This document shows, piece by piece, positions 33,408-58,114 of a stretch of 64,000 bases of DNA. The notes beneath the pieces were generated by a model that worked only from the letters and a program-made list of their open reading frames with translations, searched no databases and was not told the origin of the DNA. The stretch is from an uncultured delta proteobacterium (GTDB lineage: Bacteria > Desulfobacterota > Syntrophorhabdia > Syntrophorhabdales > WCHB1-27): contig CAWEPK010000011.1 of NCBI GenBank assembly GCA_963810935.1, positions 32,001 to 96,000 of the forward strand, written 5' to 3'. The position numbers and the translations under genes are program-made. Within the stretch, counting starts at the first letter, position 1, and every line of letters begins with the position of its first letter.

Positions 33408-34899
33408 TCACAGCCATCTCTGGATGACTACCTTGCTCTCAGTGAAGAACCTGACCGCTTCCTGGCCCTGCGTGTGGAGGACGCCGAAGAAAGAGTCCTT
33501 CATCCCGCTGAAAGGGAACAGGGCGACAGGGGCCGTAATGCCGATGTTTATGCCCACGTTGCCGGTCGCGATGTTGTACTGGAATTCCCTGCCGCTGCCG
33601 CCGTTCGATGTAAAGATGGCGTTGCCGTTGCCGAAGGGGTTGTCGTTGCAGACCTCGATCGCCTCATGGAGGGTCTTCACCCTCATCGCGCTCATGACGG
33701 GCCCGAAGATCTCTTCCCGGCCTATCGTGCATTTGGGGTCGACATCTTCAAAAACCGTCGGCCCGAGGAAGCAATCTTCAGGATATCCGCCCAGGATGTT
33801 CGGCTTCCTGCCGTCGAGACGGAGCTTTGAGCCCTCTTTTATGCCTGTCTCGATATACGACAATACCCGCAGCTTCTTTTCCTTGTCGCGCAGCGGGCCC
33901 ATCTGGACCGATTCGTCGAGGCCGTAGCCTATCCTGATGTTTGCCGCCGCTTCCACGGCCTTATCCATGAAATTCTTGTAGAAGTTGTCGTCATCCCCTA
34001 CGACGACGAGGTTCGCCCCGGCCAGGCAGCGCTGCCCCGTGTTGCCGAAAAAGGACGTCATCAATGCGGCTATGGTCTTCTGCACATTGCAATCGGGCAT
34101 AACGACCATGAAGTTCTTCGCCCCGCATTGAGCGATGACCCGTTTGCCCGTCTCGCCGCATTTCCTGTATATGACGTCTCGCCCCGTCGGGGTGGAGCCG
34201 ACAAAGGTGACACCGACGATGTCGCGGTGCTCGAGCATCGTGTTTACGACGGTCCTGCCGCCATTCACGACGTTCCAGACGCCCGGCGGAAAACCTGCCT
34301 CGTCGGCAAGCTCCGTAAGCCTCATCTGCGAAAGAGGGACCTCGCTCGAAGGCTTAAGGACTACCGTGTTGCCCGTGGCCACTGCGTAGGGCACGGACCA
34401 GAGAGGTATCATGAAGGGAAAATTGTATGGGCCGATGACGCCGAAGACTCCCAGCGGCGTGGGGATCAACCATTCATCGATGCCTGTCGCGATGTCTTCG
34501 GAGTAGTAACCCTGCTGCAGCGTGGGGATGCCGCAGGCGACCTCGACGTTCTCGATACCCCGCCTCGTCTCACCCCTCGACTCATCTATGCATTTGCCGT
34601 GCTCCTGGGTCTGGATCCTTGACAGACTCTTCGAAGTTTTCCTCAAGCAATTCTTTCAGACGAAAAAGGATCCTTGCGCGCGACAGGGGAGGTGTCCTTC
34701 TCCATTCCGGGAAGGCTTCCTTCGCGGCCGCTATGGCTTCATCGATCTCCTTTTCCGTGGAAACGCCTACTTTTGCAATGACCTCACCCTTCGCCGGGTT
34801 TACTACATCGACCGTGCCGCCCTTCGATTCGACCCACTCGCCTGCGATGAAGTTCTTTACCAGCGGGACCCCTTTTATGGGCTCGTCCAATACAGCCAT
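33408..34899 (-). CDS. mmsA: CoA-acylating methylmalonate/malonate-semialdehyde dehydrogenase; frameshift ~34627
   Basis: PYNFPFMIP, FVGSTP, GAKNF, GNTGQRCLA, EEIFGPV, FPFSG.K.SFFG; removing one base gives FEELSRIQTQEHGK. Confidence 0.88.
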
Positions 34900-35128
34900 C
34901 TCGTGACTCCTTTTTTCATGGTTTTGTGCCCGGCCGGCGCCCGGCCGGGCACGTTTCGTTTGGCGCCGCTTTCGTAAGCGGTACTTTCGCCACGGCTTCT
35001 ATATATTATAATGATTCAATAGTTTGCAATATATTGTCAAGAAAAAAAAGGCTTTAATTACGGGTAAACCCGCCCATCCGGTTGAGCGGCTTGCCGCCGG
35101 GTGGAAGTTTCGGCCGGTAATACGAGAA

Positions 35129-35152
35129 GCAGCCGCCCGGGTGGGCGGCTGC
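35129..35152 (-). terminator. Probable intrinsic terminator downstream of the aminotransferase
   Basis: 10-bp stem GCAGCCGCCC/GGGCGGCTGC; only a short U-tract (TTCTC) on the - strand. Confidence 0.45.
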
Positions 35153-35186
35153 GGTTGTTTGCTGCGATACTATCCTGATTTTAAGG

Positions 35187-36293
35187 CTAGAGGATTTTCC
35201 CGAGCGCTTCGAGAAGCTTTTCGACATTCTCGACCCTTGCCGAATGGCCCAGGAGGCCGACGCGCCAACTGCGTCCCGCCAGGGGCCCGAGGCTGCCGCT
35301 GATCTCGATCTTGAACTCGTTCCTCAGACGCTTGCGGACAGCCAGCTCATCAACGCCGTCGGGCACGCAGACGACATTGAGCGTCGGCAGGCGATAAGGT
35401 TTTTCAACGAGCATTTTCAGGCCCAGCTTCTCCAGCCCGTCGACCAGCGCCTTATGCGACTGCATATGCCTTTCGTGCACCTTCTCCGGTCCCTCGTCGA
35501 AGAACATATGGAGCGACTGGTAAAGGCCGTAGATCATATTAATCGGGGCTGTGTGGTGGTAGACCCTGTTGCGGCCCCAGTAGTCAGAGATCAGCCCCAG
35601 GTCGAGGTACCAGTTAGGCACCTTCGTCTTCCTGCTCTTCAGTTTCTGCATTGCCTTCGGAGAGAACGCGAGGGGTGAAAGACCGGGCGGGCAGGAGACG
35701 CATTTCTGGGTGCAACTGTAAATGGCGTCGCAGTTCCAGTCGTCCATGGAGACTTTGATGCCCCCCAGCGTCGTAACTGTATCGACGATATAGAGCGTAT
35801 CGCTTCCTTTGAGCATCGCGCCGATCTCGGCGACCTGGTTCTGCACGCCCGTTGCAGTCTCGCCGTGGACAACGGCGACAACGCTGTAATGCTCGCTGCT
35901 GAGCTTTTTCTGCACTTCGTCGAGGAGGATGGGCGTCCCCCAGGCGAATTCGAGCTTATCGACGCTGCCGCCGAGCCTGCCGGCCACTTCGGCCATGCGC
36001 ACGCCGAAGAGTCCGTTGATTATTACCAAGACCTTGTCTCCCGGCTCTACCAGGTTCGCGAACGACGCCTCCATGCCTGCGGAGCCCGTCCCGGATACTG
36101 CGATGGCAAACTCGTTCTCCGTATTCATGATACGGCGGATCAGGGTTTTAAGCTCGTCCGCTATGGCGAGAAAGTAAGGGTCGAGATGGCCCAGCGTCCT
36201 TTTTGAAAGTGCCGCGTAGACCTCAGGCGGAACGCACGAGGGACCTGCCCCCATAAGCAATACATTCTCAATATTGTCCAACAGATTTCCCAT
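35187..36293 (-). CDS. Class V aminotransferase (alanine-glyoxylate/serine-pyruvate family)
   Basis: LLMGAGPS, SGTGSAGMEA, VHGETATGV, SCTQKC...PPG (PLP Lys), YHHTAP. Confidence 0.93.
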   Translation of the reverse strand: MGNLLDNIENVLLMGAGPSCVPPEVYAALSKRTLGHLDPYFLAIADELKTLIRRIMNTENEFAIAVSGTGSAGMEASFANLVEPGDKVLVIINGLFGVRMAEVAGRLGGSVDKLEFAWGTPILLDEVQKKLSSEHYSVVAVVHGETATGVQNQVAEIGAMLKGSDTLYIVDTVTTLGGIKVSMDDWNCDAIYSCTQKCVSCPPGLSPLAFSPKAMQKLKSRKTKVPNWYLDLGLISDYWGRNRVYHHTAPINMIYGLYQSLHMFFDEGPEKVHERHMQSHKALVDGLEKLGLKMLVEKPYRLPTLNVVCVPDGVDELAVRKRLRNEFKIEISGSLGPLAGRSWRVGLLGHSARVENVEKLLEALGKIL

Positions 36294-36996: not shown

Positions 36997-37037
36997 TTGA
37001 CATAACCCATCGTAAGGGAGTAAATGAATATAATTCA
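36997..37037 (+). promoter_or_regulatory. sigma70 promoter overlapped by a TGAAT-N3-ATTCA operator
   Basis: TTGACA 36997-37002, 17 bp, GTAAAT; palindrome TGAATATAATTCA 37025-37037. Confidence 0.6.
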
Positions 37038-37174: not shown

Positions 37175-38808
37175 ATGATGCGCAAGCTCGGCGCTATAAC
37201 CACCTACAAAGACGTGGAGTCCCTGTCGATCGGCCAGGCCCTGGAAAGGAGCCGGTACATTGCGCCGCGGAAGACGTGCGTCTTCTTCAAGGAAGAGGGG
37301 CTTACATATAAGCAACTGGACGATCAATCGACCGCGCTGGCCGCCGGGCCTCCAGGAGATGGGCATAAAGAAAGGCGACCGGGTGGGCATATATATGTTC
37401 AACCGCCCGGAGCTGTACATAGCATTTTACGCGCTTCAAAAGCTGGGGGCCGTTGTCGCATGGATAAACGCAGGTTACAGGTCCCATGAGGTGACGTTTA
37501 TTCTCGAGAACTCTCAGGCCGTTGCCGTCCTTGCCGAGAAACGGGAAGAGGGCTTTGACAACCTGGACCTCGTCCGCGAGCTGCGTCATAACCTGCCCCG
37601 CCTCGCACACGTTGTCTCCGTAGGGGGTGGAGAGGGATATGACGTCGTCTCCTTCGAAGAGCTCATTGCCAGAGGGAAGAAAGGGAGATTCGTCAGGACC
37701 GCCATCAACGTGCGCCGCGACCTCTCCATGCTGATCTATACATCGGGGACAACCGGGGTGCCGAAAGGCTCGATGATAACCCATTTCCAGGCCGTGCGGG
37801 GAGGATACTCTCACGTGCGCGGTATGGCCGCAACAGCCGACGACGTGTTTATGGGCATACTTCCCCTGGGCCACTCCTACGGGTGCGGGACGACCCTCAT
37901 ACAGCCGGTCCTCATCCAGGCCTCCGTCATCCTCCTGGAGACGTTCAACGCGGATTTGGCGCTGAAGACCATCGACGCCCGGAAGCCTACGCTTCAGCAC
38001 GGTTCTCCCTCTCACTACCTCATGGAGATGAACCATCCGAGCGCGGACAGGTACGACCTTTCTTCCCTTCGGGCCGGCTACCTCGCGGGGCAGATATGCC
38101 CGGAAGAAATCATCCAATGGGGAGAAGACAGGAATATATACCTCTCGTCTTCATGGGGGAATTCGGAGGTCGGCCCAGGGGCGGGGACGATCTGCCCCTT
38201 CGGCACGCCCCTCGCGATACGCAAAAAAAGCGTGGGCAGGCCTGTCCCCGGGATGCGGATAAAGGTGGTTGACCCGGCGACGGGCGGGCATCTCGATGCG
38301 GGCGGAATCGGCGAATTGATGGTGAAGGGACCGAACGTTTTGAAGGGCTACTGGCAAAATCCGCAGGAAACCGGCAAGCAATTGGAAAAAGACGGCTGGC
38401 TCCATACCGGGGACCTGGTGTCGGTCGATAAGAAGGGTTTCGTCACGATTTACGGCAGGAGCAAGGATCTGATAAACAGGGGCGGGCTGAAGATCTACCC
38501 GTCCGAGGCTGGAGGCTTTGATCCTGCAGCACCCGGACGTTGCCCAGGCGTGTATCGTCGGCACGCCGAACCCGATCCTGGGTGAGAGCATCTGCGCGTG
38601 CGTAGTGCCGAAGGTCGATGCGGCCGTTTCCCTGAAGGGGATTCGTACGTTCCTTAAAGACAGGGTGGCGAACAACAAACTGCCGGATGAGCTTTGCGTG
38701 ATGCCCGATTTTCCCAGGATGCCGGGCGGCGTGAAGGTAAAGAAATTCGGCTCAGGAGGAGTACAGGAGCAGGCGTTGAATGATGGAAACCGGGAAAAGA
38801 TCAGATAG
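37175..38808 (+). CDS. Acyl/aroyl-CoA ligase; frameshifts ~37347 and ~38507
   Basis: YTSGTTGVPKG, WGNSE, GWLHTGD, RSKDLINRGGLKIYPSELEALILQHP after correction, KLPD. Confidence 0.85.
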
Positions 38809-38879
38809 GCCTGGTTAAGAGTGGATTCGAGTCGTGCTTGACGCTTGGTGTGGTTCTATGACGCTAAAGGGGGGCAATT

Positions 38880-39944
38880 ATGGTACGAAAGGTAATGGTG
38901 TTTGTGTGTGCTGTTTTTCTAGTTGTCTCGGTCTGCTCCGTATGCGGCGCGGCAGAGACGATCAAGCTTAAGTTCGCGAACTATTTCCCGCCGGTCCACA
39001 AGAACTCGACCCTTTTTGCCGAGTTCTGCCAGGAGATAAACAAGAAATCCGGCGGCAAGGTCGAAATCTCCTATTATCCCGGAGGCACACTGCTGACCGC
39101 CCCGAAGATGGCGGCCGGTGTGCTCACGGGCATCGCAGACATCGGCCTGTCCCATTTCGCTTATACGAGGGGGCGCTTCCCCGTGATGGAAGCGATGGAG
39201 CTTCCGGTGGGGTTCCCCAGTGCATGGGTCGGAGCGGGGGTGGCAAACGACTTCTTCGACAAGTTCAAGCCGAAGGAGTGGGACCAGTTTCATCCTCTCG
39301 CTTTCTGCGCCTCGACGCCGGCCGTCTTCGGCACCATCTCCAAGCCCATCCGGAAGATCGAGGACCTGAAAGGGTTGAAGATCAGGGGGACCGGGCGGAT
39401 CGGCGATGTTGTGAAGGCCCTCGGCGGGACACCGATGCCTGTCGAGATCGTCGACACCTATGAGGCGCTCAGAAGAAACGTTGTTGACGGCAACCTGGGG
39501 TCGGCCGAGCAGCTCCAGGGCTTTAAGATAGGCGAGATACTCAGGTACGTGACCGCGTCGTGGAAGGCCGGGGTCTGCTTCGGGTTCTACACGGCGATGA
39601 ACAAGCGCAAATGGGACTCACTGCCTCCCGATATGCAGAAGCTCTTCACTGAGGTCGCGAATGAGTATAAGGACAAGTGGGGCATAGCCTTTAACAGCAT
39701 CGATATCGGCGGAATAGATTTTCTGAAGAAGAACGGCGGGCAGGTCATTACACTTAGTGCTGCCGAGACGGAGAGGTGGGTAAAGGCAGTACAGCCGTTG
39801 ATTGCGGAGTTCAAGAAGGAGATGGTGGCAAAGGGTCATAAGGAACAGGACGTGGATGCATGGTTCAGTTTCATCAGGGAGCGGACGGAGTACTGGAAGG
39901 CGCAGGAGAAGGCGAGGAAGATACCGAGCATCTACGAGTATTAG
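38880..39944 (+). CDS. TRAP transporter substrate-binding protein (DctP family)
   Basis: Signal peptide, LKFANYFP, GRFPVME..ELP, DLKGLKIR, YEALRRNVVDG, MNKRKWDSLPPD. Confidence 0.9.
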   Translation: MVRKVMVFVCAVFLVVSVCSVCGAAETIKLKFANYFPPVHKNSTLFAEFCQEINKKSGGKVEISYYPGGTLLTAPKMAAGVLTGIADIGLSHFAYTRGRFPVMEAMELPVGFPSAWVGAGVANDFFDKFKPKEWDQFHPLAFCASTPAVFGTISKPIRKIEDLKGLKIRGTGRIGDVVKALGGTPMPVEIVDTYEALRRNVVDGNLGSAEQLQGFKIGEILRYVTASWKAGVCFGFYTAMNKRKWDSLPPDMQKLFTEVANEYKDKWGIAFNSIDIGGIDFLKKNGGQVITLSAAETERWVKAVQPLIAEFKKEMVAKGHKEQDVDAWFSFIRERTEYWKAQEKARKIPSIYEY

Positions 39945-39953
39945 AGAGTCAGT

Positions 39954-42347
39954 TTAAAGAAAGCAAAGGATATGTTCGCCCGAGCATATCCTTTGCTTGT
40001 AATCCTTTTTCCCTTCTTCCATCCGTTCGAGGGCGTCGAGTATCCTTTGCGGATAAAACGGCGTCCTGTCGAGGCGCACGCCGGTTGCATTGTAGAGAGC
40101 GTTTGCGACTGCGGCGACAGTACCCGCCACGTAGCCTTCCCCCACTTCCTTCGTGTCGTAATGGCGGCCTTTCTTATACTCTTCCGTGATCACGTCAACG
40201 TAATCGGTCTTCACCATGTCGAGTGCGCACGGGATCCTGTATTCCAGGAATGACGGGTTGATCACTGCGCCTTTGTCGGCGAGCACCTCCTCGTAAAGGG
40301 CGTGCCCCTGCGCCATGGAGACCTGGCCGTCGATCTGGCCTTCCACGAGCATTGGGTTGAACGGGAAGCCGCAGTCGTGGGCGGTCGTCACCTTTACAAC
40401 CTTCATCATGCCCGTTTCCGTATCGACCTCGACTTCGGCCACCTGTGCATAAGAAGAGTAATTCTCGGTCCACCTGCCGCGCGTGGTCGCAAGGCTCGGG
40501 TGGGCAGGCTCGTCCTTCATCGTCCTGAAATGGCCTTCGCCTATGATGGTGTCTCCCTGGTTCCTGGTGATGCTTGCGCCGATCGCGTCCCTGTAAGAAA
40601 GTTTCCTCTCGGGCTGCCGCTTGACGTAGATCTCTTTATTTCTGGCCTCAAGCTCGCTCACGTCCGTATCGAGCTCCTCGGCCGCTGCCGCGAGGAGCTT
40701 CTTCATCGCGTTCTCGGCTGCCTGCTTCGCCGCGTTTCCGGTAACCCAGGTAAGCCCGCTGATCCAGGAGCCGATATCGACAGTCGTCGTCTCCGTGTCC
40801 GCAGCATATACCTGGATGTCCTCCATGGGGACGGACATCTCCTCGGCAACGATCTGGCTGAGCACCGTCTCCGCCCCCTGGCCCATATCGACTGCGCCGG
40901 TGATGAGTGAGACCCCGCCGTCGTCATTCAGCTTCACGATCACCGAAGAGCTGTTCGGGTAGATCAGGGAGCCGCCGAAATAGGCGCACGTCCCTATGCC
41001 CACCCCGCGTTTGATCTTCGAGCCGTCCTTCTGCGCCTTTTGTGCTTTCCTGTGCTTCTCGGAAAAGCCGCTGGACCTGGCTACCTCTTCGAGGCATTGG
41101 GCGAGCCCGAAGTTCTTAAGGGCATCGCCGTTCGGCAGCGTCTCGCCCGGCCGCCTGGCGTTCCGCAGACGCATCTCAAGTGGGTCTATGTGCAGGTCGT
41201 TTGCGATGGCGTCGAACTGCGATTCTACTGCGAAGCGCATCGCCGGCGCGCCGTGGCCGCGCTGCGGGCAGCGGACCAGGTTGTTCGTATAGACGGAGTA
41301 GCCCTCGTATTCCAGGTTCGGTATCCTGTAAGGCGCCATGAGGAAGCCCCATGCGAGGAAGATGACTACTACACCGCTCCCCCGGTACGCCCCTGCGTCG
41401 TTTATCGTGCGCACCTTTTGCGCGAGGATCGTCCCGTCGCGGTCAACGCCTGTCTTCAACTCCACGATGAGCGGCTGGCCGTGGCGCGCTCCCTTGAAGA
41501 CCTCCTCCCGGCTGTAAACGATCCTGACGGGCAGGCGGCATTTCATCGACAAGAGGGAGGCGATATACTCGTGGCCGAAGAGGTCTATCTTTCCGCCGAA
41601 GGCCCCGCCTACGTATGTCCTGTGGACCCGCACGCTCCCGTGGGAGAGGCCGAGGGTGTCCGCCAGCTTCGCGCGTTTCAGGAAAGTCCCCATGCTGGAG
41701 AGCCACACGTTGAGCTTACCGGAATGGTCGAAGGAAGCGACGATTGCCTGGGGTTCCATATATGCGTGCGTCCGCATGTGGGTGACGAACCGGTCTTCGC
41801 GTACCAGGTACGACTCCCTGAACGCCTTTTCCACGTCGCCCCACGACGTCTGGGTCTTCCCGCCGATGTTGCGATAAGGCTCCTTCACTTTTTCATGGGA
41901 CGGGTGTATCTCCGGCGCGTCCGGCAGCATCGCATCTTCCGGGTCGAATACCGCTGGCAGCAGCTCGTAATCGACTTTTATAAGCGAAAGGGCCTCTTCC
42001 GCAGTCGATTCGTCTATAGCCGCTACGCCGGCCACCTCCTCTCCCACGTGGCGCACCCTGTCGACTGCGATGGGGTACTGGTCCGCAGGGTATCGTCCCG
42101 TCTGAACGAAGCCGTGCTTGATCAAAAGGGAATCTTTCGCCGTGACGACCGCCTTCACGCCGGGGAGCCGCTCCGCCCTGCTCGTATCGATATATACTAT
42201 GCGTGCGTGGGGAAAAGGGCTTCTCAGGACCTTCCCGCAAAGCATGCCTGGAAGGGAGACGTCGACCGTATATTCGGCGCTTCCTGTGACCTTCGCGGCG
42301 CCGTCAATTCTCGGGACCGATTTCCCGACGTAGAAGAGCCCGTCCAT
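39954..42347 (-). CDS. XDH-family molybdopterin subunit, 4-hydroxybenzoyl-CoA reductase alpha-like (copy 2)
   Basis: KVTGSAEY, GGAFGGK, QRGHG, DMGQG, AHDCG, KEVGEG; operonic with the HcrB-type gene. Confidence 0.88.
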   Translation of the reverse strand: MDGLFYVGKSVPRIDGAAKVTGSAEYTVDVSLPGMLCGKVLRSPFPHARIVYIDTSRAERLPGVKAVVTAKDSLLIKHGFVQTGRYPADQYPIAVDRVRHVGEEVAGVAAIDESTAEEALSLIKVDYELLPAVFDPEDAMLPDAPEIHPSHEKVKEPYRNIGGKTQTSWGDVEKAFRESYLVREDRFVTHMRTHAYMEPQAIVASFDHSGKLNVWLSSMGTFLKRAKLADTLGLSHGSVRVHRTYVGGAFGGKIDLFGHEYIASLLSMKCRLPVRIVYSREEVFKGARHGQPLIVELKTGVDRDGTILAQKVRTINDAGAYRGSGVVVIFLAWGFLMAPYRIPNLEYEGYSVYTNNLVRCPQRGHGAPAMRFAVESQFDAIANDLHIDPLEMRLRNARRPGETLPNGDALKNFGLAQCLEEVARSSGFSEKHRKAQKAQKDGSKIKRGVGIGTCAYFGGSLIYPNSSSVIVKLNDDGGVSLITGAVDMGQGAETVLSQIVAEEMSVPMEDIQVYAADTETTTVDIGSWISGLTWVTGNAAKQAAENAMKKLLAAAAEELDTDVSELEARNKEIYVKRQPERKLSYRDAIGASITRNQGDTIIGEGHFRTMKDEPAHPSLATTRGRWTENYSSYAQVAEVEVDTETGMMKVVKVTTAHDCGFPFNPMLVEGQIDGQVSMAQGHALYEEVLADKGAVINPSFLEYRIPCALDMVKTDYVDVITEEYKKGRHYDTKEVGEGYVAGTVAAVANALYNATGVRLDRTPFYPQRILDALERMEEGKKDYKQRICSGEHILCFL

Positions 42348-42834
42348 TAATGGCCTCCTTTCGCGCCGTATGCGGCGGAGGCTATCGCTTGCAGTATCTT
42401 GTTGTACCCGGTGCACCGGCAGAAGTTGCCGGAGATCGCGACGAGTATCTCCTCATCGGACGGCTTCGGGTTGGCGTCGAGGAGCGCCTTGGCAGTAAGC
42501 ACCATGCCGGGCGTGCAATACCCGCACTGGACTGCCCCATGGTCGAGAAACGCCTGCTGGATGGGGTGCAGCCCTTCCCCTGAAGAAAGGCCCTCTATGG
42601 TCGTGATCTTCCTGCCCTGCGCCTCGACTGCGAGGATAAGGCAGGAGCGGACGGGCAGACCGTCCATGAGGACCGTGCAGGCCCCGCATACTCCGTCGTC
42701 GCACGCCTGCCTGGCGCCTTTCATCGACAGGTCCTCACGCAGCACTTCGAGGAGCGTCCGGTTGGGATGCGCGGCAATCTCGTAGTCCAGGCTGTTCACC
42801 GCGAGGGAGATGAGGCGCTTCGTTTTTTTTCCAT
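42347..42834 (-). CDS. XDH-family (2Fe-2S) subunit (HcrC-like); indel in the A8 run just after the start
   Basis: CDDGVCGACTV, QCGYCTPG, GNFCRCTGY; ATG 42834 has RBS GAGGAG, and one extra A in 42823-30 restores MEKKTKRLISLAVN. Confidence 0.88.
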
Positions 42835-42845
42835 TGCTCTCCTCT

Positions 42846-43823
42846 TTAGAGGCGCTCCAGCGCTGCTTTCATCGCCCTTACGGCGAAGACGGCCAGCATC
42901 TTACGCCTGTAAGACGCAGGCAGGACCTGGTTATCGACGAGGGGCAGGTTTTTGGGGATGGACCGGCCGATTGCATCCAGGTCGATGTCAGAAGGCGCCT
43001 TGCCTTCGACAAGCCCGTCGAGGGGGACGACTACAGGGGCGGGACCGGCCGCTGTCAGAACGAGTCTGGCCGACTGTATCGTTTTCCCGGCTACTGTGAC
43101 GAAGGCTGCCGCGCCCGCCATGGGGTAATCTACTGCGGAGCGGAGGCGGAATTTTTCGTACGCTGCGCCCGCGTGACGGAAGAGAGGCACAACGACCTCC
43201 GTCGCAAGCTCGCCCGGCCTTAGTCGCAAAGGCGCAAGTCCCTGCCCGGTAAAAAGCTCCTCGACAGGGACTTCGCGGGGCTTCGCCCTTTTTCTCTCGA
43301 TCCTGACGCTTACGCCCGATGCGATCAGCGCCGGGGCGATATCTCCCTGGTAGAGGCTGAAGCATTTCCTGCCGTTCGGCACTGCGAGGCAATGCCTGCC
43401 TCCAGCCTTGAGGCACGGCTCGCGCTCCATCCTCCAGACTGCCGACTGGTTGTAGAAAAGGCAGCGGGACCCCTGGAACAGGTTTCCGCCTATCGTCGCC
43501 GTATTGCGTATCGGAGGGGCCGCGACTGAAAGTGCGGCGTGATAAAGCGCGGGCGCGTGCTTCATTACTTCCGGGGATGCCGCTATCTCGGAAAGGGTGG
43601 TCATTGCGCCGATCCGGAGCGCCTGCCTGCCCCGGACGATCCGGCTAAGCCCGGCCACGTCCTTGAGGCCGACTACCAGAGAGGGCCGCACCAGGCCGAG
43701 CCGTATCAACGGTATCAGGTCGGTCCCTCCCGCCTGGGGCCTTGCCTCTCCGTGGTGCTCCATGACCGCCAGGGCCTCTTTCACCGTCTCCGGTCCCAGG
43801 AAGTCAAAGTAAGGCAGTCGCAT
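42846..43823 (-). CDS. hcrB: FAD-binding subunit with [4Fe-4S] Cys insert, 4-hydroxybenzoyl-CoA reductase beta-like
   Basis: AGGTDL; GGNLFQ followed by RCLFYNQS..WR....CLK.GG..C.......C; EKFRLRSAVDYP. Confidence 0.8.
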   Translation of the reverse strand: MRLPYFDFLGPETVKEALAVMEHHGEARPQAGGTDLIPLIRLGLVRPSLVVGLKDVAGLSRIVRGRQALRIGAMTTLSEIAASPEVMKHAPALYHAALSVAAPPIRNTATIGGNLFQGSRCLFYNQSAVWRMEREPCLKAGGRHCLAVPNGRKCFSLYQGDIAPALIASGVSVRIERKRAKPREVPVEELFTGQGLAPLRLRPGELATEVVVPLFRHAGAAYEKFRLRSAVDYPMAGAAAFVTVAGKTIQSARLVLTAAGPAPVVVPLDGLVEGKAPSDIDLDAIGRSIPKNLPLVDNQVLPASYRRKMLAVFAVRAMKAALERL

Positions 43824-43858
43824 AGATGCGCCCCCTTGCGCTTGGTCGTGATAAGCTT

Positions 43859-44638
43859 TCAGGAAGCGGCTGCGAACAGGGCCGCACCGAGGGCCACGGT
43901 CATTGCCGGGTCCCATCCGGGTTTTTGCGGCAGGCCGCTCACCTGCAGGATGCCCTCGACCCGGCCTATCAACGCCGCGTTGTTTGCCAGCCCGCCTATA
44001 ACCACGAAGTCTTTCTTCATGCCCGATCTGGCCACTAGCGTTGCGATCCTTTCCGCCATCGCCTGCATGTAGCCTGCGATGACATGTTCGGCAGGCACGT
44101 TGTGGCGGATGAGGTCGAGTGCCTCGGACTGCGCGTATACTGCGCAGAAGTTGCCTATTTTCGCCGCTTTTTCCGACCGCGAGGCGGCATCGTTGATTCC
44201 GGCCGTATCCTCTCCCGCAAGCGCGGCAAAGGTCTCAAGGGAGCGGCCGATGCCTGACGCGCATTTGTCGTTCCATAGGAAATCTAGTGCCCTGCCCTTT
44301 TCAGTGCAATGGACTACCCGGCAGCTTATGCCGCCTGCGTCGAGCACAGTGCGGACGGACGGCCCCCATGTGCGGACTGCGCCCGCAGCAGCGCATGCGA
44401 CCTCGGTCACGCTCTTTTGGGCGAAGGCGACCTGCGCCCTGCCCCTGCCCGTCGCAACGATGCAGCCGACCTTGTCTATCTTCAAACCGGCCGCCGCCAG
44501 GGCCTCGTCGATCGCGGCTAAGGCCGACTCGGCCGGCGTCCGGGTAGTGACGAGAGAACATCCGGCAAGCTCTCCGTCCACCAGTATCACGGCCTTCGAG
44601 GTTGAGGCGCCTATATCTATTCCCGCTGCTGTTTTCAT
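43859..44638 (-). CDS. bzdQ: ASKHA-type activase subunit, benzoyl-CoA reductase BzdQ-like
   Basis: GIDIG, TEVAC, NDKCASGIG, FCAVYAQSE, AGYMQAMAER, ALGAALF. Confidence 0.7.
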   Translation of the reverse strand: MKTAAGIDIGASTSKAVILVDGELAGCSLVTTRTPAESALAAIDEALAAAGLKIDKVGCIVATGRGRAQVAFAQKSVTEVACAAAGAVRTWGPSVRTVLDAGGISCRVVHCTEKGRALDFLWNDKCASGIGRSLETFAALAGEDTAGINDAASRSEKAAKIGNFCAVYAQSEALDLIRHNVPAEHVIAGYMQAMAERIATLVARSGMKKDFVVIGGLANNAALIGRVEGILQVSGLPQKPGWDPAMTVALGAALFAAAS

Positions 44639-45411
44639 CTTCCACCCTCGATTGCTGCGCCTATGGCGCACACGTATTCCGGCATCTCCGACAGGGATGC
44701 GTCCTGTCCTATGACGGCAGGCAGGCGCCCGGCGAGCGCTTTTGCCAGGCCGCCCGCGACGACGACCTCCCTGGTCAGCGTGATGCATGTGCTCATGGCG
44801 CCTACACGGTCGGCCATGAACTTCAGGACTGCGTTCGCCGCGTCAGGGGTTTCCGTGCCCCTGCACATCAGGTCGATGACCTCAGACTCGGCACAGAGCG
44901 CGCACTGGACGGCGACTGAGGCGTCGACCTTCGATTTCGCCGCGAGCGTGCACATCTCATCCTCGCTCAACCCCAGTGACCGCGCCATGGCTGTGTAGAA
45001 GATGCCGAGGCCGTCGGCGCACTTGTCGTTCTGGATGACGTCGATGACGTCGCCGCTTGCGTCGTACCGGACCGCCTGGTGTACGTTCCCGCCGATATCA
45101 ATGACCGTCCTCGACGCCCTGTTGAGGAAGAAGGCGCCTCGTGCGGCTGCCACGTAGTCGGGGATGGCGCCCGAACCTTCCGCCGCCGCTCCCAACGCCC
45201 GCTCCCTGTATATGCCCGTAGTAACGACAGCAGCAGGCGCGCCTGCGCCCGCGCTTTCCAGGCACCGGGCGAGGACCGCCCGGGCTGCGCCGGCCGGGTC
45301 GAACCCGGTCGGCACCGTGCAGGAGGCGAGGACCTCCCGGCCTCTCATTACTACCGCTTTCGTATTGACGTGGCCCGCATCAATTCCTGCCAGGATCTTT
45401 TCGTTATTCAT
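44635..45411 (-). CDS. bzdP: ASKHA-type activase subunit, BzdP-like
   Basis: AGIDAG..NTKAV, AARGAFFL, NDKCA.G.G, QCALCAESEV, AIGAA. Confidence 0.6.
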   Translation of the reverse strand: MNNEKILAGIDAGHVNTKAVVMRGREVLASCTVPTGFDPAGAARAVLARCLESAGAGAPAAVVTTGIYRERALGAAAEGSGAIPDYVAAARGAFFLNRASRTVIDIGGNVHQAVRYDASGDVIDVIQNDKCADGLGIFYTAMARSLGLSEDEMCTLAAKSKVDASVAVQCALCAESEVIDLMCRGTETPDAANAVLKFMADRVGAMSTCITLTREVVVAGGLAKALAGRLPAVIGQDASLSEMPEYVCAIGAAIEGGR

Positions 45412-46553
45412 GGCGCCACCCGCGTAATCGTTTCTATGAGGGCCTCAAGCTGAGTCCCGAACTGGTTCATCGGCACGGTCGTATCGAGCTCCAGCTCAAC
45501 CGAAGGGATGCCGAGCTGCTCCAAAATGGGCTTCAATGCAACGATGTCGTTAGGCTGGGGGCTGCAAAACCGCTGATATAAAAATATCACGCCGTCCGGC
45601 CTGTAGTCCTCTATGAACTGCCTGACGAACCTGAACCTTTTCCGCTCGCCCGTGCCCGGCACGTTGTCTTTTGCGGGGCAGGGGAGCCTGCCCGTGTAGC
45701 CTTCCGCAAGCGCAGCGAGCTTATCGGCCCTGCCTTCCGGCACCTCGAACCAGAAGTACCTGGCCGCAGTGCAGGAATCGGCGAACACAAGGCTCGCCTT
45801 GTAACCCAGGTGCTCGATCAGGTCGAAGACCGCGAGGTCGTCGCACGCGCCTCCCGTCACCATGAGCCTTACTCCCGGCGGCTTGCCCGCATCGCCGTCA
45901 AGGCTGCCGATCAATTCTTCGAGCATCTCATTGCACTCCTGCTTATCCATGACCTGGGCGGCAAGCGTCACCGCCGCAGCTTCCGGCCCGGTTACGGGCG
46001 GCCTGTCGCTCCTCAGGAACTCCCACAGCCGTTTGAGCAGTCTTCTGTTGCGGTTGTAAACCTTGATTGCCTCTTCCAGTTTTGCGTCCGTTATGCTCTT
46101 TGTCGAGAATTTCTCTACGAACTGCCTGAATTGTCCGAAGGACTCGGCGACAAAGGCCGGGGCGGGTTTGGTTTCCATGATGTGTGGGAATGGTATGAGG
46201 TAGCTTTTCTCCCCGAACCCGGCGAACCGGACCCAGACATTGAACGCCTCGGACATATGGATGCAACTGCTGCTCGTGACGAGCAGGTCGAGGTAGTCGT
46301 AATTGTGCTGCAAGCCTTGATAGGCGCAGTCGTGCGAGAAGGAGCAGTACGTCTCATGGATGTAGCTCCTCGTCATCGCTTGCGACACGTGGTTGGTTAG
46401 GACCCTGACCGGGACGATGCCGGCCGCATAAAGGATCTCCTCGGGGACGTGGGTGCACATGTACCCCGCAATCGGGCGGCCCAGTGCCTTTGCATATGCG
46501 TGCGGCTCCTCGCTTATCCGGCGGAAGCGTTCGACGATCGCGGCTTTTTCCAT
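45408..46553 (-). CDS. bzdN: Benzoyl-CoA reductase BzdN-like subunit (2-hydroxyacyl-CoA dehydratase family)
   Basis: GYMCTHVPEEILYAAG, YCSFSHDC, SCIH, DSCT..RYFW, RLPCPAKD, QRFCSP. Confidence 0.75.
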   Translation of the reverse strand: MEKAAIVERFRRISEEPHAYAKALGRPIAGYMCTHVPEEILYAAGIVPVRVLTNHVSQAMTRSYIHETYCSFSHDCAYQGLQHNYDYLDLLVTSSSCIHMSEAFNVWVRFAGFGEKSYLIPFPHIMETKPAPAFVAESFGQFRQFVEKFSTKSITDAKLEEAIKVYNRNRRLLKRLWEFLRSDRPPVTGPEAAAVTLAAQVMDKQECNEMLEELIGSLDGDAGKPPGVRLMVTGGACDDLAVFDLIEHLGYKASLVFADSCTAARYFWFEVPEGRADKLAALAEGYTGRLPCPAKDNVPGTGERKRFRFVRQFIEDYRPDGVIFLYQRFCSPQPNDIVALKPILEQLGIPSVELELDTTVPMNQFGTQLEALIETITRVAP

Positions 46554-47869
46554 TATCGCACCCCTTTCCTGCGGGCTTCCATCAGGTGGACTAACAACTC
46601 CGTTTTCCGCTGGGCGCCCGGCAGGTCCATCTTACGGACGTCAACCTGGTCGGTGTCGTATTCCACGGTGGGAATCTCGCCCTTGAAAATGCGCTGCATG
46701 CCGATGTAGCCGTTCCTGAAGTCCGTCTCGCAGCTACGGGAAGGTGCGAGCAGGAGTCCGTCCGCCTTATATTCATCCACCATCGCCCTTGCCATCTTTT
46801 CCAGGGCCCAGTAGGAGCGCACACCCTGCCAGGTGGGCCAGCCGAGGACTATCTTGGCAAGCTCGGTGATCGCCTTTCTTCTCGTTGACACGTCGAGCTC
46901 GTCCACCCATTGAGGGTCTATAGGCTCCCAGGTCCACTTGCCGTCCACCAGCCCCTTGAAGTTGCCGCAGGTGCCGAAAGTGTAGACCGAGGCAACGATC
47001 TCGGCCCCGACGTCCCGGAGGATGCGCGCCATTTCCGGGTGGCCGTAAGTGTGGGCGATTCCGAAGTAGACTATCCTGTAGCGCTGGTCGGGGGCGACGC
47101 TCTCGCCGTTTGCGACCATGCTCTTCACTTCCTCGAGCAGCGTCTCATACAGCCTGACGCTTTCATCGGTCGTCCTGTCAACGATCGCAGGGGGGAAAAG
47201 GGCAATGAGACGCCGCTCGTCGAGGGGCGCGGGCGAGCGCATGTTGAGGGCGCAGATATTGCCCCACAGGACGAGTACCTTGATCTCGTTCCTGGCGGCC
47301 TTGATGAACAGCTCGTCCGAGTACCCCCTGCCGGTCACCCTTTCGAGCCAGTTTATTCCGCCTTCTATCTGGTCGGAGACGTACTTTACGATCTTGGGGT
47401 CTTTCTCGGCGTTGCCGCCACCGATCATATCTATCGCGTACATGGGGATGCCGCCGAGGCGCCTTGAGACCTCCTGATACCATTTGGAGTGCTGGCTGCA
47501 CAGGTGCGTTGTCCAGATCACGTCCGGCTTGGGATACCCGTCCCTGATCGTACCGTCGGTAATGGCGATCTTGTCCCGGACGACCTCTCCTACAAAGAGC
47601 TTCAGGTAGCTGCAAGCGTGGAAGCCCAGACCTGCGGCCTCTGCCGCCGCAATGTCCAAACGGCTTTCCTCCGGGAAGGTGCCTGCCGTCGAAGCGGCAT
47701 GCGGCTCGCCGCCTATCAGGTGCACGTCCTCCCCCAGCCCCTTCAGCGGGGCCAGCACGCTCCATGTGGAGCCCATGCAGCGCAAACCGCCGGAAGCCTC
47801 CACGTAGTCCTTGTAACATCCGCTCTGGTAGCTCTTGATCTCGGGCCAGGTCTTCAGGTTATACGGCAC
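46553..47869 (-). CDS. bzdO: Benzoyl-CoA reductase BzdO-like subunit
   Basis: LKTW, GGLR, GLGEDV...GEP.AA, CSY, PKPD, C..HSKWYQ, SRSCE; recalled BzdO-type N-terminal pattern; GTG start with GGAGG. Confidence 0.75.
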   Translation of the reverse strand: MPYNLKTWPEIKSYQSGCYKDYVEASGGLRCMGSTWSVLAPLKGLGEDVHLIGGEPHAASTAGTFPEESRLDIAAAEAAGLGFHACSYLKLFVGEVVRDKIAITDGTIRDGYPKPDVIWTTHLCSQHSKWYQEVSRRLGGIPMYAIDMIGGGNAEKDPKIVKYVSDQIEGGINWLERVTGRGYSDELFIKAARNEIKVLVLWGNICALNMRSPAPLDERRLIALFPPAIVDRTTDESVRLYETLLEEVKSMVANGESVAPDQRYRIVYFGIAHTYGHPEMARILRDVGAEIVASVYTFGTCGNFKGLVDGKWTWEPIDPQWVDELDVSTRRKAITELAKIVLGWPTWQGVRSYWALEKMARAMVDEYKADGLLLAPSRSCETDFRNGYIGMQRIFKGEIPTVEYDTDQVDVRKMDLPGAQRKTELLVHLMEARRKGVR

Positions 47870-47905: not shown

Positions 47906-47996
47906 TGAATACGATTCATTATTATCCATCCGTCACTGCTTGTCAAGTAATTTTAATCCTGTAAAATCACATAACTAATGATATTAATGATATTCA
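47906..47996. promoter_or_regulatory. Leftward sigma70 promoter with TGAAT-N3-ATTCA operators
   Basis: TTGACA on - strand 47946-41, 17 bp, AATAAT; TGAATACGATTCA 47906-18; weaker TTAATGATATTCA 47984-96. Confidence 0.6.
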
Positions 47997-48094: not shown

Positions 48095-48784
48095 ATGAAA
48101 GGCAAAGACGAGACGCTGAAAAAAAGTTTCAAGAGAAAGGCGATCATACAGGCGGCCATCGAAGTCTTCGGCAAGAAGGACTTCCAGAGCGCGGCCATAT
48201 CGGAGATAGCCCAGAGCGCGGGCGTCGCCGACGGCACCATTTACCAGTATTTCAAGAACAAGGAAGACCTCTTCTTTTCGATCCCCGTCGAGAAGACGAA
48301 AGAATTCCGCGACGAGCTTAACCTCCACCTCCAGGGCATCCACGGCGCACTGAATAAGATTCGGAAATTCGTCTGGTACTTCCTTTATTTCTTCAAGACG
48401 AACCCCGAGTACGGAAGGATACTGATGCTCGAGATGCGGGTGAGCAGGAGTTTCGTCGCAACGGCGACGTACGATTTCCTGAAGAAATCGGTCAGCCAGG
48501 TGATGGAGATCATCGCCGAAGGGCAGAAAGAAAGGGTTATCAGGGCCGACATCGACCCATACGTCATGCGCCACCTTATCCTCGGCGTCTTAGAGCACAT
48601 GGCGACGCGCTGGCTGCTCAAAGGCGCGAAATACGACCTGCTCGCGCATCATGAGGAAGTCAGCCGGCTGTTGATCGACGCGTTGAGCAGCGAGTCCGCC
48701 CGCATGGGAAAACCCACCGATAAACGCAGCGCAAGGAAGGCGCAGCCGGGGACGCCGCCCGCCAAACGCAAACCGACTCAATAA
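48095..48784 (+). CDS. TetR-family regulator (FadR/YsiA-like)
   Basis: IIQAAIEVF...ISEIAQSAGVADGTIYQYFKNKEDL; divergent from the Bzd operon. Confidence 0.92.
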   Translation: MKGKDETLKKSFKRKAIIQAAIEVFGKKDFQSAAISEIAQSAGVADGTIYQYFKNKEDLFFSIPVEKTKEFRDELNLHLQGIHGALNKIRKFVWYFLYFFKTNPEYGRILMLEMRVSRSFVATATYDFLKKSVSQVMEIIAEGQKERVIRADIDPYVMRHLILGVLEHMATRWLLKGAKYDLLAHHEEVSRLLIDALSSESARMGKPTDKRSARKAQPGTPPAKRKPTQ

Positions 48785-50891: not shown

Positions 50892-52643
50892 ATGAAGAGA
50901 TCGTTTATTCTATGCTGCGCCGGGCTTGCCCTTGCCCTGGCAGTCTGTGCAGCACCGGCAGGGGCGCTTACCATAGGCGGACTCGTCAGGCAGCCGCTCA
51001 ACCTCGGCGCATCGGAGCTTGCGGCCCACTTCGAGAATACGACAGTCCGTGCGACCGAGGTCGGCAGCGACAGGCAGTTCCACGGGGCGTTCGTTTACCG
51101 GGGCGTTCCCCTCAAGACACTCTTGTCCCTCGCTTCCGTCCGCAAGGAAGACTCAAATTACCAGAAGCCGTTCGACCTCGCCGTGGTAGTTAAGAACAGA
51201 GAAGGCAAGACCGCCGTGCTGTCGGTGGGGGAGATCTTCTATCGGAACGGCGGTGAGATACTGGTCGCGTTCGCCGCCGAGCCGTTGATGCCCGGCCACA
51301 CGAATTGCGGCGCCTGCCACGGCCCGAGCGTCTACCAGCCGGCCCTCGACCAGTTGACGCGAAAAATAGCCTTTCCGAAGCTTGTCGTAACAGGCGACTT
51401 TTTCACCGACCGCAACCTTGAGGAGGTCATAAGCATCGATGTCATAGAGATGCCGGCGAGGGCAGACAAGAAGCAGATGAAAGGACTCCTCTCCTCGCCG
51501 AAATTCAGTGTCTCGGACGGCAGGGGAAAGGCCGTTGAGATCACCGACCTTGCCGGCTATCGCCGGGTCGAGATAGACCTGAAGTATATGAGCGAAGGGA
51601 ACGGATACCACGGCGTGAAGCGAGTGAGCGGGGTGCCGCTCAAAGACATCCTGGACAAAAACGGCATGGGCCGGGACGCCCACGCTGTGGTCCTCGCCTC
51701 GTCGGTCGATGACTACAGGATTCTCATCTCCGATGGCGAGCTTCGTCTAAACCCGGCCGGCGAGCGCATACTGGTAGCCGACAGTGTTGACGGGGTGCCC
51801 ATCAAGGAGGGGAAATTCACCCTGTTCTTTCCGGACGACATTGCCTACGACAGGACCGCCAAGGCCCTGAGCAAGATCGAGGTAGTGCGGCTGGAGCAGA
51901 AGGCGAGGCTCTTTGTAATCGGCGTCGGCTGCGCGGACACGAGTCTCGTCACCTTAAAGGCTGTCTCGTACATGGGCAGGTCGGATGTCTTTGTCGCATC
52001 CGACGATGTAAAGAGCCGGTTTTCGCGGTATATCGGCGACAAGCCGGTGCTCTTCGATCCGTTCAAGAGCATGGCCCACCTCATGAAAAAGGACAACGCG
52101 GGGCTTACGGAGGAGCAGGTTAAAGAGAAGGCCGAGGCGCAGCTCGTAAAGAACAACAGGTCGATCGGCGACGCCCTGAAGGCAGGCAAGAACGTCGCCA
52201 TCCTCGAATACGGCGACCCGACCGTCTATCCGCCCTGGCCGGGCTGGCTCGACCCCGAACTGAAAGACCGCGTGGAGGTAGTGCCGGGGTTGAGTGCTTT
52301 CAATGCGTCCAACGCGATGCTCGACGGCAGCCTCACGTGCAGGGGCGGCTCCATCGTGCTCACTACGCCGAGGGCCATCATCGAGAACGTCGAGCTTGCT
52401 AAGGCCGTCTCAAACTACGGCGATACCCTCGCAGTCTTCATGGGGGTCAGGGAGATTGCATCGCTCGTACCGGCGCTGCGCCGCCACTATCCGCCGGGTA
52501 CGCCAGTCTATATCGTTTACAAGGCGGGTTATTCGAATAGCGCGCACGTGGTAAAGACAACACTCGGCGAGGCAGTTGAGACTGCGGCTAAGGAGAAAGA
52601 AACTCACCTGGCGATGATCTACATAGTGCCGTGCCTCAAATAG
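50892..52643 (+). CDS. Exported fusion protein: two sulfite-oxidase/molybdopterin-oxidoreductase-like domains + CxxCH + tetrapyrrole methylase domain
   Basis: Sec signal (..AAPAGA); GVPLKTLL and GVPLKDIL repeats; CGACH (nt 51306-20); LFVIGVGCAD..VTLKA, GDPTVY, EVVPGLSAFNA. Confidence 0.75.
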   Translation: MKRSFILCCAGLALALAVCAAPAGALTIGGLVRQPLNLGASELAAHFENTTVRATEVGSDRQFHGAFVYRGVPLKTLLSLASVRKEDSNYQKPFDLAVVVKNREGKTAVLSVGEIFYRNGGEILVAFAAEPLMPGHTNCGACHGPSVYQPALDQLTRKIAFPKLVVTGDFFTDRNLEEVISIDVIEMPARADKKQMKGLLSSPKFSVSDGRGKAVEITDLAGYRRVEIDLKYMSEGNGYHGVKRVSGVPLKDILDKNGMGRDAHAVVLASSVDDYRILISDGELRLNPAGERILVADSVDGVPIKEGKFTLFFPDDIAYDRTAKALSKIEVVRLEQKARLFVIGVGCADTSLVTLKAVSYMGRSDVFVASDDVKSRFSRYIGDKPVLFDPFKSMAHLMKKDNAGLTEEQVKEKAEAQLVKNNRSIGDALKAGKNVAILEYGDPTVYPPWPGWLDPELKDRVEVVPGLSAFNASNAMLDGSLTCRGGSIVLTTPRAIIENVELAKAVSNYGDTLAVFMGVREIASLVPALRRHYPPGTPVYIVYKAGYSNSAHVVKTTLGEAVETAAKEKETHLAMIYIVPCLK

Positions 52644-57641: not shown

Positions 57642-57646
57642 GGCGC

Positions 57647-58114
57647 CTACTCCTTCATCATTTGTGCGGCGGCTCTTACCGATGCAAAAATCTTCGTATA
57701 TCCCGTGCACCGGCAGAAGTTCCCGGACAGTCCCTGGCGTATCTCCTCATCACTGGGGTCCTTGTTCTTATCAAGGAGGACTTTCGTAGAGAGGATCATC
57801 CCCGGCGTACAAAACCCGCATTGCAGCCCTCCGACGTCTACGAAAGCCTGTTGAATCGGGTGGAGCTTCTCGCCATCCGCCAGCCCTTCGATAGTCGTGA
57901 TCTCCTTTCCGTCGGCTTCCATCGCAAGCATTATGCAGGCATTGACCGCCTGGTTATCCATGATCACGGTGCAAGCCCCGCATTCACCGAGACCGCACCC
58001 CTCTTTTGTTCCCGTCAGCCCCAGGTCTTCCCGGAGGACGTCGAGCAGCATGGCTGACGGCTTCACCTTTACCGTATATGGTTTGTTGTTGACCTTCAGT
58101 TTTAAGGTTTTCAC
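57647..58114 (-). CDS. XDH-family (2Fe-2S) subunit
   Basis: GTKEGCGLGECGACTV, QCGFCTPG, GNFCRCTGY; GTG start. Confidence 0.93.
   Translation of the reverse strand: MKTLKLKVNNKPYTVKVKPSAMLLDVLREDLGLTGTKEGCGLGECGACTVIMDNQAVNACIMLAMEADGKEITTIEGLADGEKLHPIQQAFVDVGGLQCGFCTPGMILSTKVLLDKNKDPSDEEIRQGLSGNFCRCTGYTKIFASVRAAAQMMKE

Follow-up and report, generated by a model that had tools for sequence, protein, structure and literature searches.

The 64,000-nucleotide stretch of DNA analysed here (the window) comes from an uncultured delta proteobacterium of the Syntrophorhabdales (contig CAWEPK010000011.1). It carries seven genes on the minus strand, from 47869 down to 39954, in the order O-N-P-Q-hcrB-hcrC-hcrA. 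The first four (ONPQ) encode homologs of the Bzd-type class I benzoyl-coenzyme A (CoA) reductase (BCR), and the last three encode a molybdo-enzyme resembling Hcr. The clade to which ONPQ belongs is a widespread variant of the class I aryl-CoA reductase in strict anaerobes, joined here by a lineage-specific Hcr-like add-on; no paper on it was found in a literature search, subscription papers lying outside that search. Judged from sequence, there is nearly an even chance that ONPQ is an accessory reductase that acts on a substituted benzoyl-CoA, taking off its hydroxyl or amino group and passing the product to the existing pathway. The locus would then consist of two modules behind one promoter: a conserved core of a TetR regulator and ONPQ with variable ligase and transporter, and the add-on Hcr-like enzyme.

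As the initial annotation had supposed, ONPQ derives from a Bzd-type class I BCR; it is not a dehydratase. PF06050 and PF01869 each occur twice across the four proteins, giving the HGD-D heterodimer plus ASKHA [4Fe-4S] activator of the radical enzyme family that includes class I BCR and the 2-hydroxyacyl-CoA dehydratases. The best PDB match of O (46553..47869, minus strand, 438 aa, GTG start) is BzdO (8S02, E 5.8e-60; HadB, E 5.5e-16). Its predicted model (predicted local distance difference test score 92) fits BzdO with a fold Z of 50.3, versus 40.8 for HadB and 38.9 for MbdO. Two trees, a quick one of 82 rows and a 30-row LG+G4 tree, were built with reference rows labelled by best hidden Markov model score, no experimentally named HadB or BcrB sequence being among the rows. 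In the quick tree the clade (support 100) falls inside the BzdO radiation (97) on a stem of 1.53. The 30-row tree gives the same placement and a long stem; support is 100/98 for the broader BzdO-like group and 84/93 for the set nested within it, from a bootstrap that had not settled. Across trees the stem measures 1.25-1.53 changes per column. The check proposed in the initial annotation, whether O would branch with dehydratases, has a clear outcome: a grouping of the clade with HadB-like rows is rejected by the approximately unbiased (AU) test on the 30-row tree (p 0.0004), and O scores 82 bits on the dehydratase model NF052455 against a cut-off of 750. A dehydratase identity was rejected on the fold search, in which BzdO is nearest, together with the AU test.

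Bzd ancestry does not make ONPQ a canonical enzyme. The best NCBIfam matches along the operon are BzdO, BzdN, an activase, BzdQ, HcrB and HcrA, with general xanthine-oxidase-family models for the small subunit, and every BCR and Hcr equivalog score is below its cut-off. O reaches 211 bits on TIGR03191 (cut-off 448.6), N 240 on TIGR03190 (453.8) and Q 187 on TIGR03192 (380.2); Q exceeds the cut-off of the broader TIGR00241. On these scores ONPQ is not a BZD-type benzoyl-CoA reductase equivalog, though Bzd-derived.

The real change in O appears to lie in its substrate pocket. Residue roles in BzdO are taken from PMC11971306; here and below, published work is cited from the parts of each source that were available. 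C86, C124, C380, E55 and H127 of O correspond to BzdO Cys95, Cys128, Cys380, Glu65 and His131, and the counterparts of Ser44, Trp46, Tyr97, Tyr298 and Glu381 are also kept. Among 120 O homologues, S34, E55, C86, Y88, H127, Y296, C380 and E381 are invariant, and W36 and C124 occur in 119. The sequence THLCSQHSKW, regarded initially as a meaningful departure from CCSH, proved to be a minor matter: the sole change is at non-ligand Cys129, Cys128 and His131 being retained. Lost function at this motif was rejected, since all cluster ligands and catalytic residues remain. Relative to BzdO, the pocket has Asp for Leu383, Thr for both Leu302 and Gly382, His for Tyr67 and AHTY for QPPW; nearly all of these replacements are fixed in 120/120. 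T300, T382, D383, F384, R385 and H57 occur in all 120 homologues, where canonical BzdO has leucine, glycine or hydrophobic residues. From the hydrophobic benzoyl pocket (Trp46, Tyr97, Leu302, Leu383) and the oxyanion site (Tyr97, Tyr298, Gln274), O retains the tryptophan and both tyrosines; L302T, L383D and the replacement of the Gln274 region are clade-invariant.

Across the clade, drawn from strict anaerobes in several phyla, O is 77-99% identical. Matches of at least 77% were found in 13 of 41 relatives, own genome included, and in 31 GTDB loci with labels of Syntrophorhabdales, Dethiobacter, Dehalococcoidales, Desulfobacteraceae, Thermodesulfobacteriota and Deltaproteobacteria and one Bacteroidetes bin; 11 of 22 family members have no close match. 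A search of 1.84 billion representatives with O returned one full-length cluster at 83%, the next match being at 35%. Gene order is O-N-P-Q in 30 of 32 clade loci, the other two being too short to tell, and six canonical loci have N-O-P-Q. Conservation runs O 85, N 77, Q 73 and P 70% over 15 clade loci, versus Q 69, N 58, P 57 and O 55% over four canonical loci. The most conserved subunit of the clade is thus the least conserved of the canonical loci, a pattern that suggests fast change followed by tight constraint. ESM Atlas matches were unnamed HGD-D clusters only, and no cultured or studied clade member was found among the matches listed (120 of 149; up to 15 per cluster; 120 of 2538), whose names are automatic, either 'benzoyl-CoA reductase subunit B' or 'dehydratase'. 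Dozens more BzdO-like clusters fall below the cut-off (P0127-P0275; L107, L108, L111, L113), some as N-O pairs without nearby activators; they appear to form a large unstudied radiation of class I-like enzymes.

The electron-delivering subunits retain their predicted clusters. N (45408..46553, minus strand, 381 aa), the predicted double-cubane [8Fe-9S] carrier, aligns all six BzdN double-cubane cysteines, invariant in 15/15 clade loci. A seventh cysteine, in GGACDD (window 45411-46553; canonical BzdN, GSENDD), occurs near the double-cubane channel in the same 15 loci. The ASKHA activators P (44635..45411, minus strand, PF01869) and Q (43859..44638, minus strand) differ at phosphate-2: P has DIGGNV (clade GGN(I/V)) versus canonical DVGAEE, and Q has DAGGIS (GG(Q/E)S in most of the clade) versus canonical DMGGQD, so that the acidic residues are lost in both. 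Cluster cysteines, in P the NDKC and QC motifs, and the Glu base (Q and most P) are kept. In DCCP-R the role of base is proposed for D94 and E69, and the change E69Q cuts ATPase activity about tenfold (PMC9351452). D94 would correspond to the Asp of GGQD. Because P and Q lack acidic phosphate-2 residues matching these bases, their use of ATP may be slower or different, rather than demonstrably lost. In G001, P and Q share one 519-codon frame (L026:10900-12456), a P-Q fusion or an indel artefact, and two tandem activators stand at G000 C18:30099-31725 without a catalytic pair in that stretch.

The altered activators bear on the proposal that ONPQ no longer dearomatises and instead performs other radical chemistry on a CoA ester, be it dehydration, deamination or some easier reduction, spending less ATP or using it only catalytically, in convergence on the chemistry of the 2-hydroxyacyl-CoA dehydratases. 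We regard this as improbable. Consistent with it are the missing acidic residues, the inverted order of conservation with O highest instead of lowest, and the motif RSCE, which resembles the HadB-like RSCK. However, the AU test rejects union with HadB-like rows, Trp46, His131, Glu65 and the double cubane are of the BCR type, the Glu base persists in Q and most P, and the neighbors are aroyl-CoA ligases, a tripartite ATP-independent periplasmic (TRAP) system and bam genes.

ONPQ is not the plain benzoyl-CoA reductase of the cell. The genome has other means of reducing benzoyl-CoA: bamB (1115 bits to 4Z3W), followed by genes whose N-termini suggest bamC-I; a further bamBC copy that is frameshifted; and, on a separate contig, had-oah-dch. 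With these genes lying elsewhere in the genome, ONPQ is not its housekeeping reductase. BamB is encoded in 27/32 clade genomes, in 11/11 family members that lack a close match to O, and in 0/7 genomes with canonical bzdO (90-99% complete). The presence of a class I enzyme in a strict anaerobe is not itself exceptional, contrary to what had been assumed: canonical bzdO exceeds the cut-off in 7 of 301 genomes of the phylum, and canonical class I enzymes are described from strict anaerobes (PMC5736913). That occurrence, the Bzd ancestry and the position of ONPQ directly ahead of bamBCD in 4 loci would fit a plain second benzoyl-CoA reductase for times of tungsten or selenium shortage. Such a role is nonetheless very improbable, given that all subunits score about half the equivalog cut-off, that an invariant Asp and Thr replace ring-lining hydrophobic leucines, that BamB is kept in clade genomes and absent from canonical bzdO genomes, and that half of the family has no close match. 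In 4 loci of one lineage bamB lies 2-3 genes past Q, after a TetR and a short-chain dehydrogenase/reductase (SDR) gene.

It is possible, if rather unlikely, that ONPQ merely dearomatises a substituted or heteroaromatic aroyl-CoA, such as 3-hydroxybenzoyl- or pyridine-carboxyl-CoA, to a stable dienoyl-CoA for unlinked Dch, Had and Oah or for beta-oxidation, much as methylbenzoyl-CoA is handled by 3-methylbenzoyl-CoA reductase (MBR). The full Birch machinery is retained in O, Oah matches occur in 26/32 clade genomes (21 over cut-off), and the new Asp could bind a ring nitrogen. Published work adds that Dch and Oah accept fluorinated dienoyl-CoAs (PMC5742626) and that strain EbN1 dearomatises 3-hydroxybenzoyl-CoA (PMC9765128). 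Against it, no hydratase, dehydrogenase or hydrolase gene recurs in the 32 loci, where dch, had and oah are absent throughout (0/32; loci 1-21 kb long), and following the operator in ten other genomes turned up no such gene. Canonical loci keep these genes adjacent: had and dch stand beside bzdNOPQ in all four examined (L100, L101, L102, L104), with an oah-like gene in three. The window itself has no crotonase, dienoyl-CoA hydratase or ferredoxin gene in its open reading frame listing, as first observed; its sole CxxCxxCxxxC motif lies inside an aldo-keto reductase at 32818.

For removal of the substituent, the reading we favour, the following mechanism is proposed. A polar-substituted benzoate, most likely hydroxy- or amino-, would be imported and ligated to CoA. 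Electrons would pass from PQ to the [8Fe-9S] cluster of N and on to the aqua-[4Fe-4S] cluster of O, and the ring would be reduced at C3/C4 as in BzdNO. The Asp383/Thr300/His pocket would bind or protonate the substituent, which is then lost. The substituent could leave the reduced ring, which would rearomatise to benzoyl-CoA for BamB. Alternatively, with an ortho hydroxyl or amino group, a dienol or dienamine could collapse to 6-oxocyclohex-1-enoyl-CoA for Oah. Neither route would need a Dch or Had of its own. In its most specific form, the proposal is of a class I Birch reductase rebuilt for the dedicated reductive deamination or dehydroxylation of a benzoyl-CoA with an ortho or meta substituent (e.g., anthraniloyl-, salicyloyl- or 3-hydroxybenzoyl-CoA), working beside a class II BCR in strict anaerobes and, its ATPase sites weakened, using less than 1 ATP per electron; this full version is speculative and, on balance, unlikely.

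The available clues to the substrate point to a polar group. The initial proposal of a dedicated unit for a substituted or heteroaromatic acid is in this respect supported by the pocket; the part that bound the unit to Hcr is not. Class I BCR is known to eliminate chloride and fluoride from 3-chloro- and 4-fluorobenzoyl-CoA, giving benzoyl-CoA (PMC4992971). In Desulfatiglans anilini, Hcr paralogs are induced by 4-aminobenzoate; among the matches listed in the available part of that source, Hcr-like beta subunits are induced and two BcrC/BadD/HgdB-like proteins (425 and 413 aa) are not (PMC7500099). These data would argue against a para-amino substrate for ONPQ if the two proteins belong to the clade. 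Because 4-aminobenzoate induces Hcr-like proteins in that organism, it can be suggested that para groups fall to molybdo-enzymes, leaving ortho and meta groups for ONPQ. The operator-linked ligase of L064 is nearest to anthranilate-CoA ligase 4WV3 (447 vs 389 bits). Some neighboring genes encode enzymes for aryl hydroxyl or amino groups or for amides: a creatininase-family amidohydrolase is found in 4 of the 32 loci, Amidohydro_3 in 2, and a kinase pair like phenylphosphate synthase (Pps) in 3. The two-subunit kinase is co-oriented with the ligase and ONPQ at L059:1267-4326, L070:17302-20406 and L031:2225-5286; one tested exceeds the PRK08296 cut-off and also has PPDK_N. These three loci contain no carboxylase, and the kinase pair may phosphorylate a ring hydroxyl or amino group. 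A distant Pps-like pair (26% and 42%) lies at G000 C8:532540-535288 beside SDR and flavin adenine dinucleotide (FAD) oxidoreductases.

Several points weigh against a role in substituent removal. Hydroxyl and amino groups are poorer leaving groups than chloride, and ATP expenditure is costly for a syntroph-like cell. BamB is family-wide, so its co-occurrence marks ONPQ as accessory and does not reveal its function. The neighbor counts come from related genomes and are non-independent, and loci of 1-21 kb miss distant partner genes. The ligases fall into four families across the loci and name no single substrate; the window-type ligase has weak PDB matches, the best being a salicylate-AMP ligase at 217 bits. 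Leu383 is listed, in the available part of PMC11971306, just as part of the hydrophobic lining of BzdO. Direct ortho elimination by BCR is called unlikely in PMC5742626, as far as that source was available; the ortho route therefore needs a tautomer shunt, for which the literature search found no precedent.

Uptake, activation and reduction are linked as a predicted TetR regulon, in agreement with the initial annotation. Both flanking units noted there are present: a divergent TetR (48095..48784, plus strand) and a convergent ligase-DctP pair (~37175-39944). The TetR protein is FadR/YsiA-like, of an acyl-CoA-responsive family that suggests its ligand (NF053878, 139 vs 200). Ahead of O is a sigma70-like promoter, TTGACA-17-AATAAT (47918..47946, minus strand; 11 of 12 positions, a consensus match only), and touching its -10 box is the palindrome TGAAT-N3-ATTCA (47906..47918), a putative TetR operator. 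A second exact copy (37025..37037) precedes the ligase and DctP and is conserved in the closest relative (L050:17208). Two copies in 4.06 Mb, with 0.83 expected, are unremarkable as a count; the placement and conservation of the palindrome are what is remarkable. The relaxed form TGAAY-N3-RTTCA occurs in 18/27 regions upstream of O versus 0.1 in shuffled sequence. It also precedes a transporter-ligase unit in each of L064 and L078 and, in G001, the two-component pair that stands before the hcr-type genes. A TetR homolog is present in 17/32 clade loci, ligase orthologs of at least 67% in 6/32, and DctP homologs of at least 54% in 5/32 and beside three hcr-type modules. The ligase (37175..38808, plus strand, AMP-forming, ~543 aa) has two apparent frameshifts that are assembly errors, its three frames being 75-82% identical to an intact ortholog. 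DctP (38880..39944, plus strand, PF03480), a TRAP solute-binding protein without dctQM beside it, ends 9 nt from the hcrA stop. Scanning ten genomes for the operator gave no substrate: the scans returned mostly the same locus, unrelated matches, and two units of a TetR with an oxidoreductase of the Mo/W-bis(pyranopterin guanine dinucleotide) (bisPGD) type.

The two units in other genomes carry the same palindrome (L171:12938-15706, L172:7181-9979). A 686-aa Mo/W-bisPGD oxidoreductase stands directly before O in L058, L068, L074 and L080, and 59% homologs of it lie at G000 C10:122185 and C7:43057. The window also holds a module of a branched-chain-type ATP-binding cassette (ABC) transporter and a CoA ligase (22999-29359). 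Homologous modules flank ONPQ in G001 and in L078, there with the operator, and follow hcr-type genes in L135-L137.

The Hcr-like genes are a separate, lineage-specific add-on module. The pairing of an Hcr-type reductase with a BCR in one operon, put forward initially as a fixed unit, was rejected as a conserved arrangement: the O-N-P-Q order is upheld by synteny, but no hcrA ortholog occurs in the 32 clade loci (best 49% identity), and orthologs elsewhere are accompanied by a PaaK-like ligase and a TRAP or ABC system of their own. Other family members (29-49%) are found in 8/32 clade loci, two of which have them immediately behind Q. The congener G001 has its ortholog ~10 kb past Q. In the closest relative, G002, also a congener and 93-96% identical in DNA, only the first ~34 nucleotides of hcrB and two scraps of hcrA remain as a deletion scar; the coupling therefore predates the split from G002, which has since lost it. 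Indels are also present in P, Q and the ligase of G002 and may reflect decay or sequencing error.

The assignment to Hcr holds as a likeness and fails as an equivalence. The HcrA-like subunit (39954..42347, minus strand, 797 aa), a molybdenum-molybdopterin cytosine dinucleotide protein of a distinct conserved subfamily, scores 639 bits on TIGR03194 (cut-off 994.55); the HcrB-like FAD subunit (42846..43823, minus strand) 252 on TIGR03195 (404.55); and the HcrC-like subunit (42347..42834, minus strand, ~160 aa, Fer2_2, 2x[2Fe-2S]) 160 on TIGR03193 (257.8). HcrA-like motifs SSMG, GSWISGLT and KEVGEG differ from those of HcrA and are conserved in orthologs. The enzyme would probably take off a para hydroxyl or amino group first, the genus using a doubly substituted benzoate. 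A quite serious, though still doubtful, alternative is that it works oxidatively, as a hydroxylase or an aldehyde dehydrogenase, or is a passenger whose substrate is some unrelated acid. Besides the motifs and the deletion in G002, two observations speak for this: three other xanthine-oxidase-family paralogs in the genome outscore the HcrA-like subunit on TIGR03194 (686, 657 and 655), and orthologous large subunits in L135-L137 (67-70%) pair with FAD subunits of 286-287 aa, too short for the [4Fe-4S] insertion. Reductive dehydroxylation upstream of ONPQ is favored by the best PDB matches, 1RM6_A (424 vs 298 bits) and 1RM6_B (184 vs 106 bits), by orthologs traveling with their own CoA ligase, and by an ortholog of at least 57% in 16/32 clade genomes. 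C121, C137, C145 and C154 of the HcrB-like protein align to the four insertion cysteines of 1RM6_B, which we take to be a mark of Hcr, common also to PaoB. Three more large subunits of the xanthine-oxidase family lie in the window (12713-15127, 55326-59001, 63698-64000), and the genome has 17 matches (C8, C10 and C7 included), several adjoining aryl-acid-type ligases and IclR/TetR regulators; the paralog at 55326-57710, with GSYGSRVT and KEASEG, resembles HcrA in more of its motifs than the large subunit of the operon does.

The tight coupling of the seven genes described initially is borne out by their coordinates. O and N overlap by 1 nt (TAATG), N/P and P/Q by 4 nt each (ATGA) and hcrC/hcrA by 1 nt, and gaps of 35 nt and 11 nt separate Q-hcrB and hcrB-hcrC. 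As assembled, the ligase is broken twice and hcrC lacks a start in the window. Surplus letters at 37344/37349, 38507 and 42823 (5 nt) are absent from short-read contigs (four runs of one study, possibly the source samples), and a broken ligase or hcrC was rejected in favor of assembly error. A misassembly between Q and hcrB was likewise rejected. The junction is real because read contigs bridge it (X2 42990-44346, X3 43616-44700), and the cluster is intact. Elsewhere, the window encodes a class V aminotransferase and a methylmalonate-semialdehyde dehydrogenase-like gene (33411-36293), with a frameshift at 34626 that the short-read contigs identify as an assembly error. A molybdopterin-binding-like N-terminal part (weak PF00174) fused to a tetrapyrrole methyltransferase (50892-52643) is absent at that place in G002. 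There is no tRNA gene in the window.

The two classes of benzoyl-CoA reductase are regarded as alternatives, and none of the genomes with canonical bzdO encoded BamB (0/7). The clade breaks this exclusion, lying beside BamB in 27 of 32 genomes. Its conservation is very strong across genomes labelled Syntrophorhabdales, Dethiobacter, Dehalococcoidales and Desulfobacteraceae. Its members bear no annotation beyond 'dehydratase' or 'benzoyl-CoA reductase subunit B', and marker surveys would therefore wrongly count them toward benzoate dearomatisation. The clade could reveal which enzyme strict anaerobes use to strip hydroxyl or amino substituents at ortho or meta positions from aromatics derived from plants and tryptophan, and could show how the pocket of a Birch reductase is retuned. 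Anthranilate and salicylate have been reported en route to benzoate in methanogenic tryptophan fermentation (PMC6221969); if the most specific form of the proposal holds, ONPQ would be a gene-level candidate for the step from either compound to benzoate in methanogenic consortia, and in this genus ONPQ and the Hcr-like enzyme, acting in tandem, would remove two groups from the same ring. Since BzdNO has already been made in E. coli and its structure determined, the ON dimer can be tested directly.

BzdNO of strain CIB (PDB 8S02, 8S1T, 8S2R; PMC11971306) is the closest known system. It has the same four-subunit layout and fold (root-mean-square deviation 2.1 over 425 residues at Z 50.3), the same site of three cysteines and an aqua ligand with Glu65, His131, Ser44 and Trp46, and the same six double-cubane cysteines; most clade Q subunits share the BzdQ-type N-terminal extension. 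Identity ranges from ~30-33% (O) to 47% (Q). Unlike BzdNO, the clade has the order O-N-P-Q, the replacements L383D, L302T, G382T and QPPW to AHTY, altered ATPase motifs and no nearby dch, had or oah, and coexists with BamB. MbdONPQ (MBR; PDB 9GAI, 9G87) is a class I enzyme for a substituted benzoyl-CoA with, by name, the same gene order; it is more distant (Z 38.9, 20% identity), MbdQ keeps GGQD and EISCH, and the MBR substituent is non-polar. HadBC/HadI, the (R)-2-hydroxyisocaproyl-CoA dehydratase (3O3M, 4EHT), shares the fold family (Z 40.8) and activator family, but has one homodimeric activator and no double cubane, and its grouping with the clade is rejected by the AU test. For the add-on module, the nearest known systems are HcrCAB, the 4-hydroxybenzoyl-CoA reductase of Thauera aromatica (1RM6), and its paralogs induced by 4-aminobenzoate in D. 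anilini (PMC7500099). HcrCAB is the same xanthine-oxidase heterotrimer with a [4Fe-4S] insertion in the FAD subunit and the catalytic Glu kept, whereas all three subunits here score below cut-off and TTQV and GSYSSRVT are replaced by SSMG and GSWISGLT.

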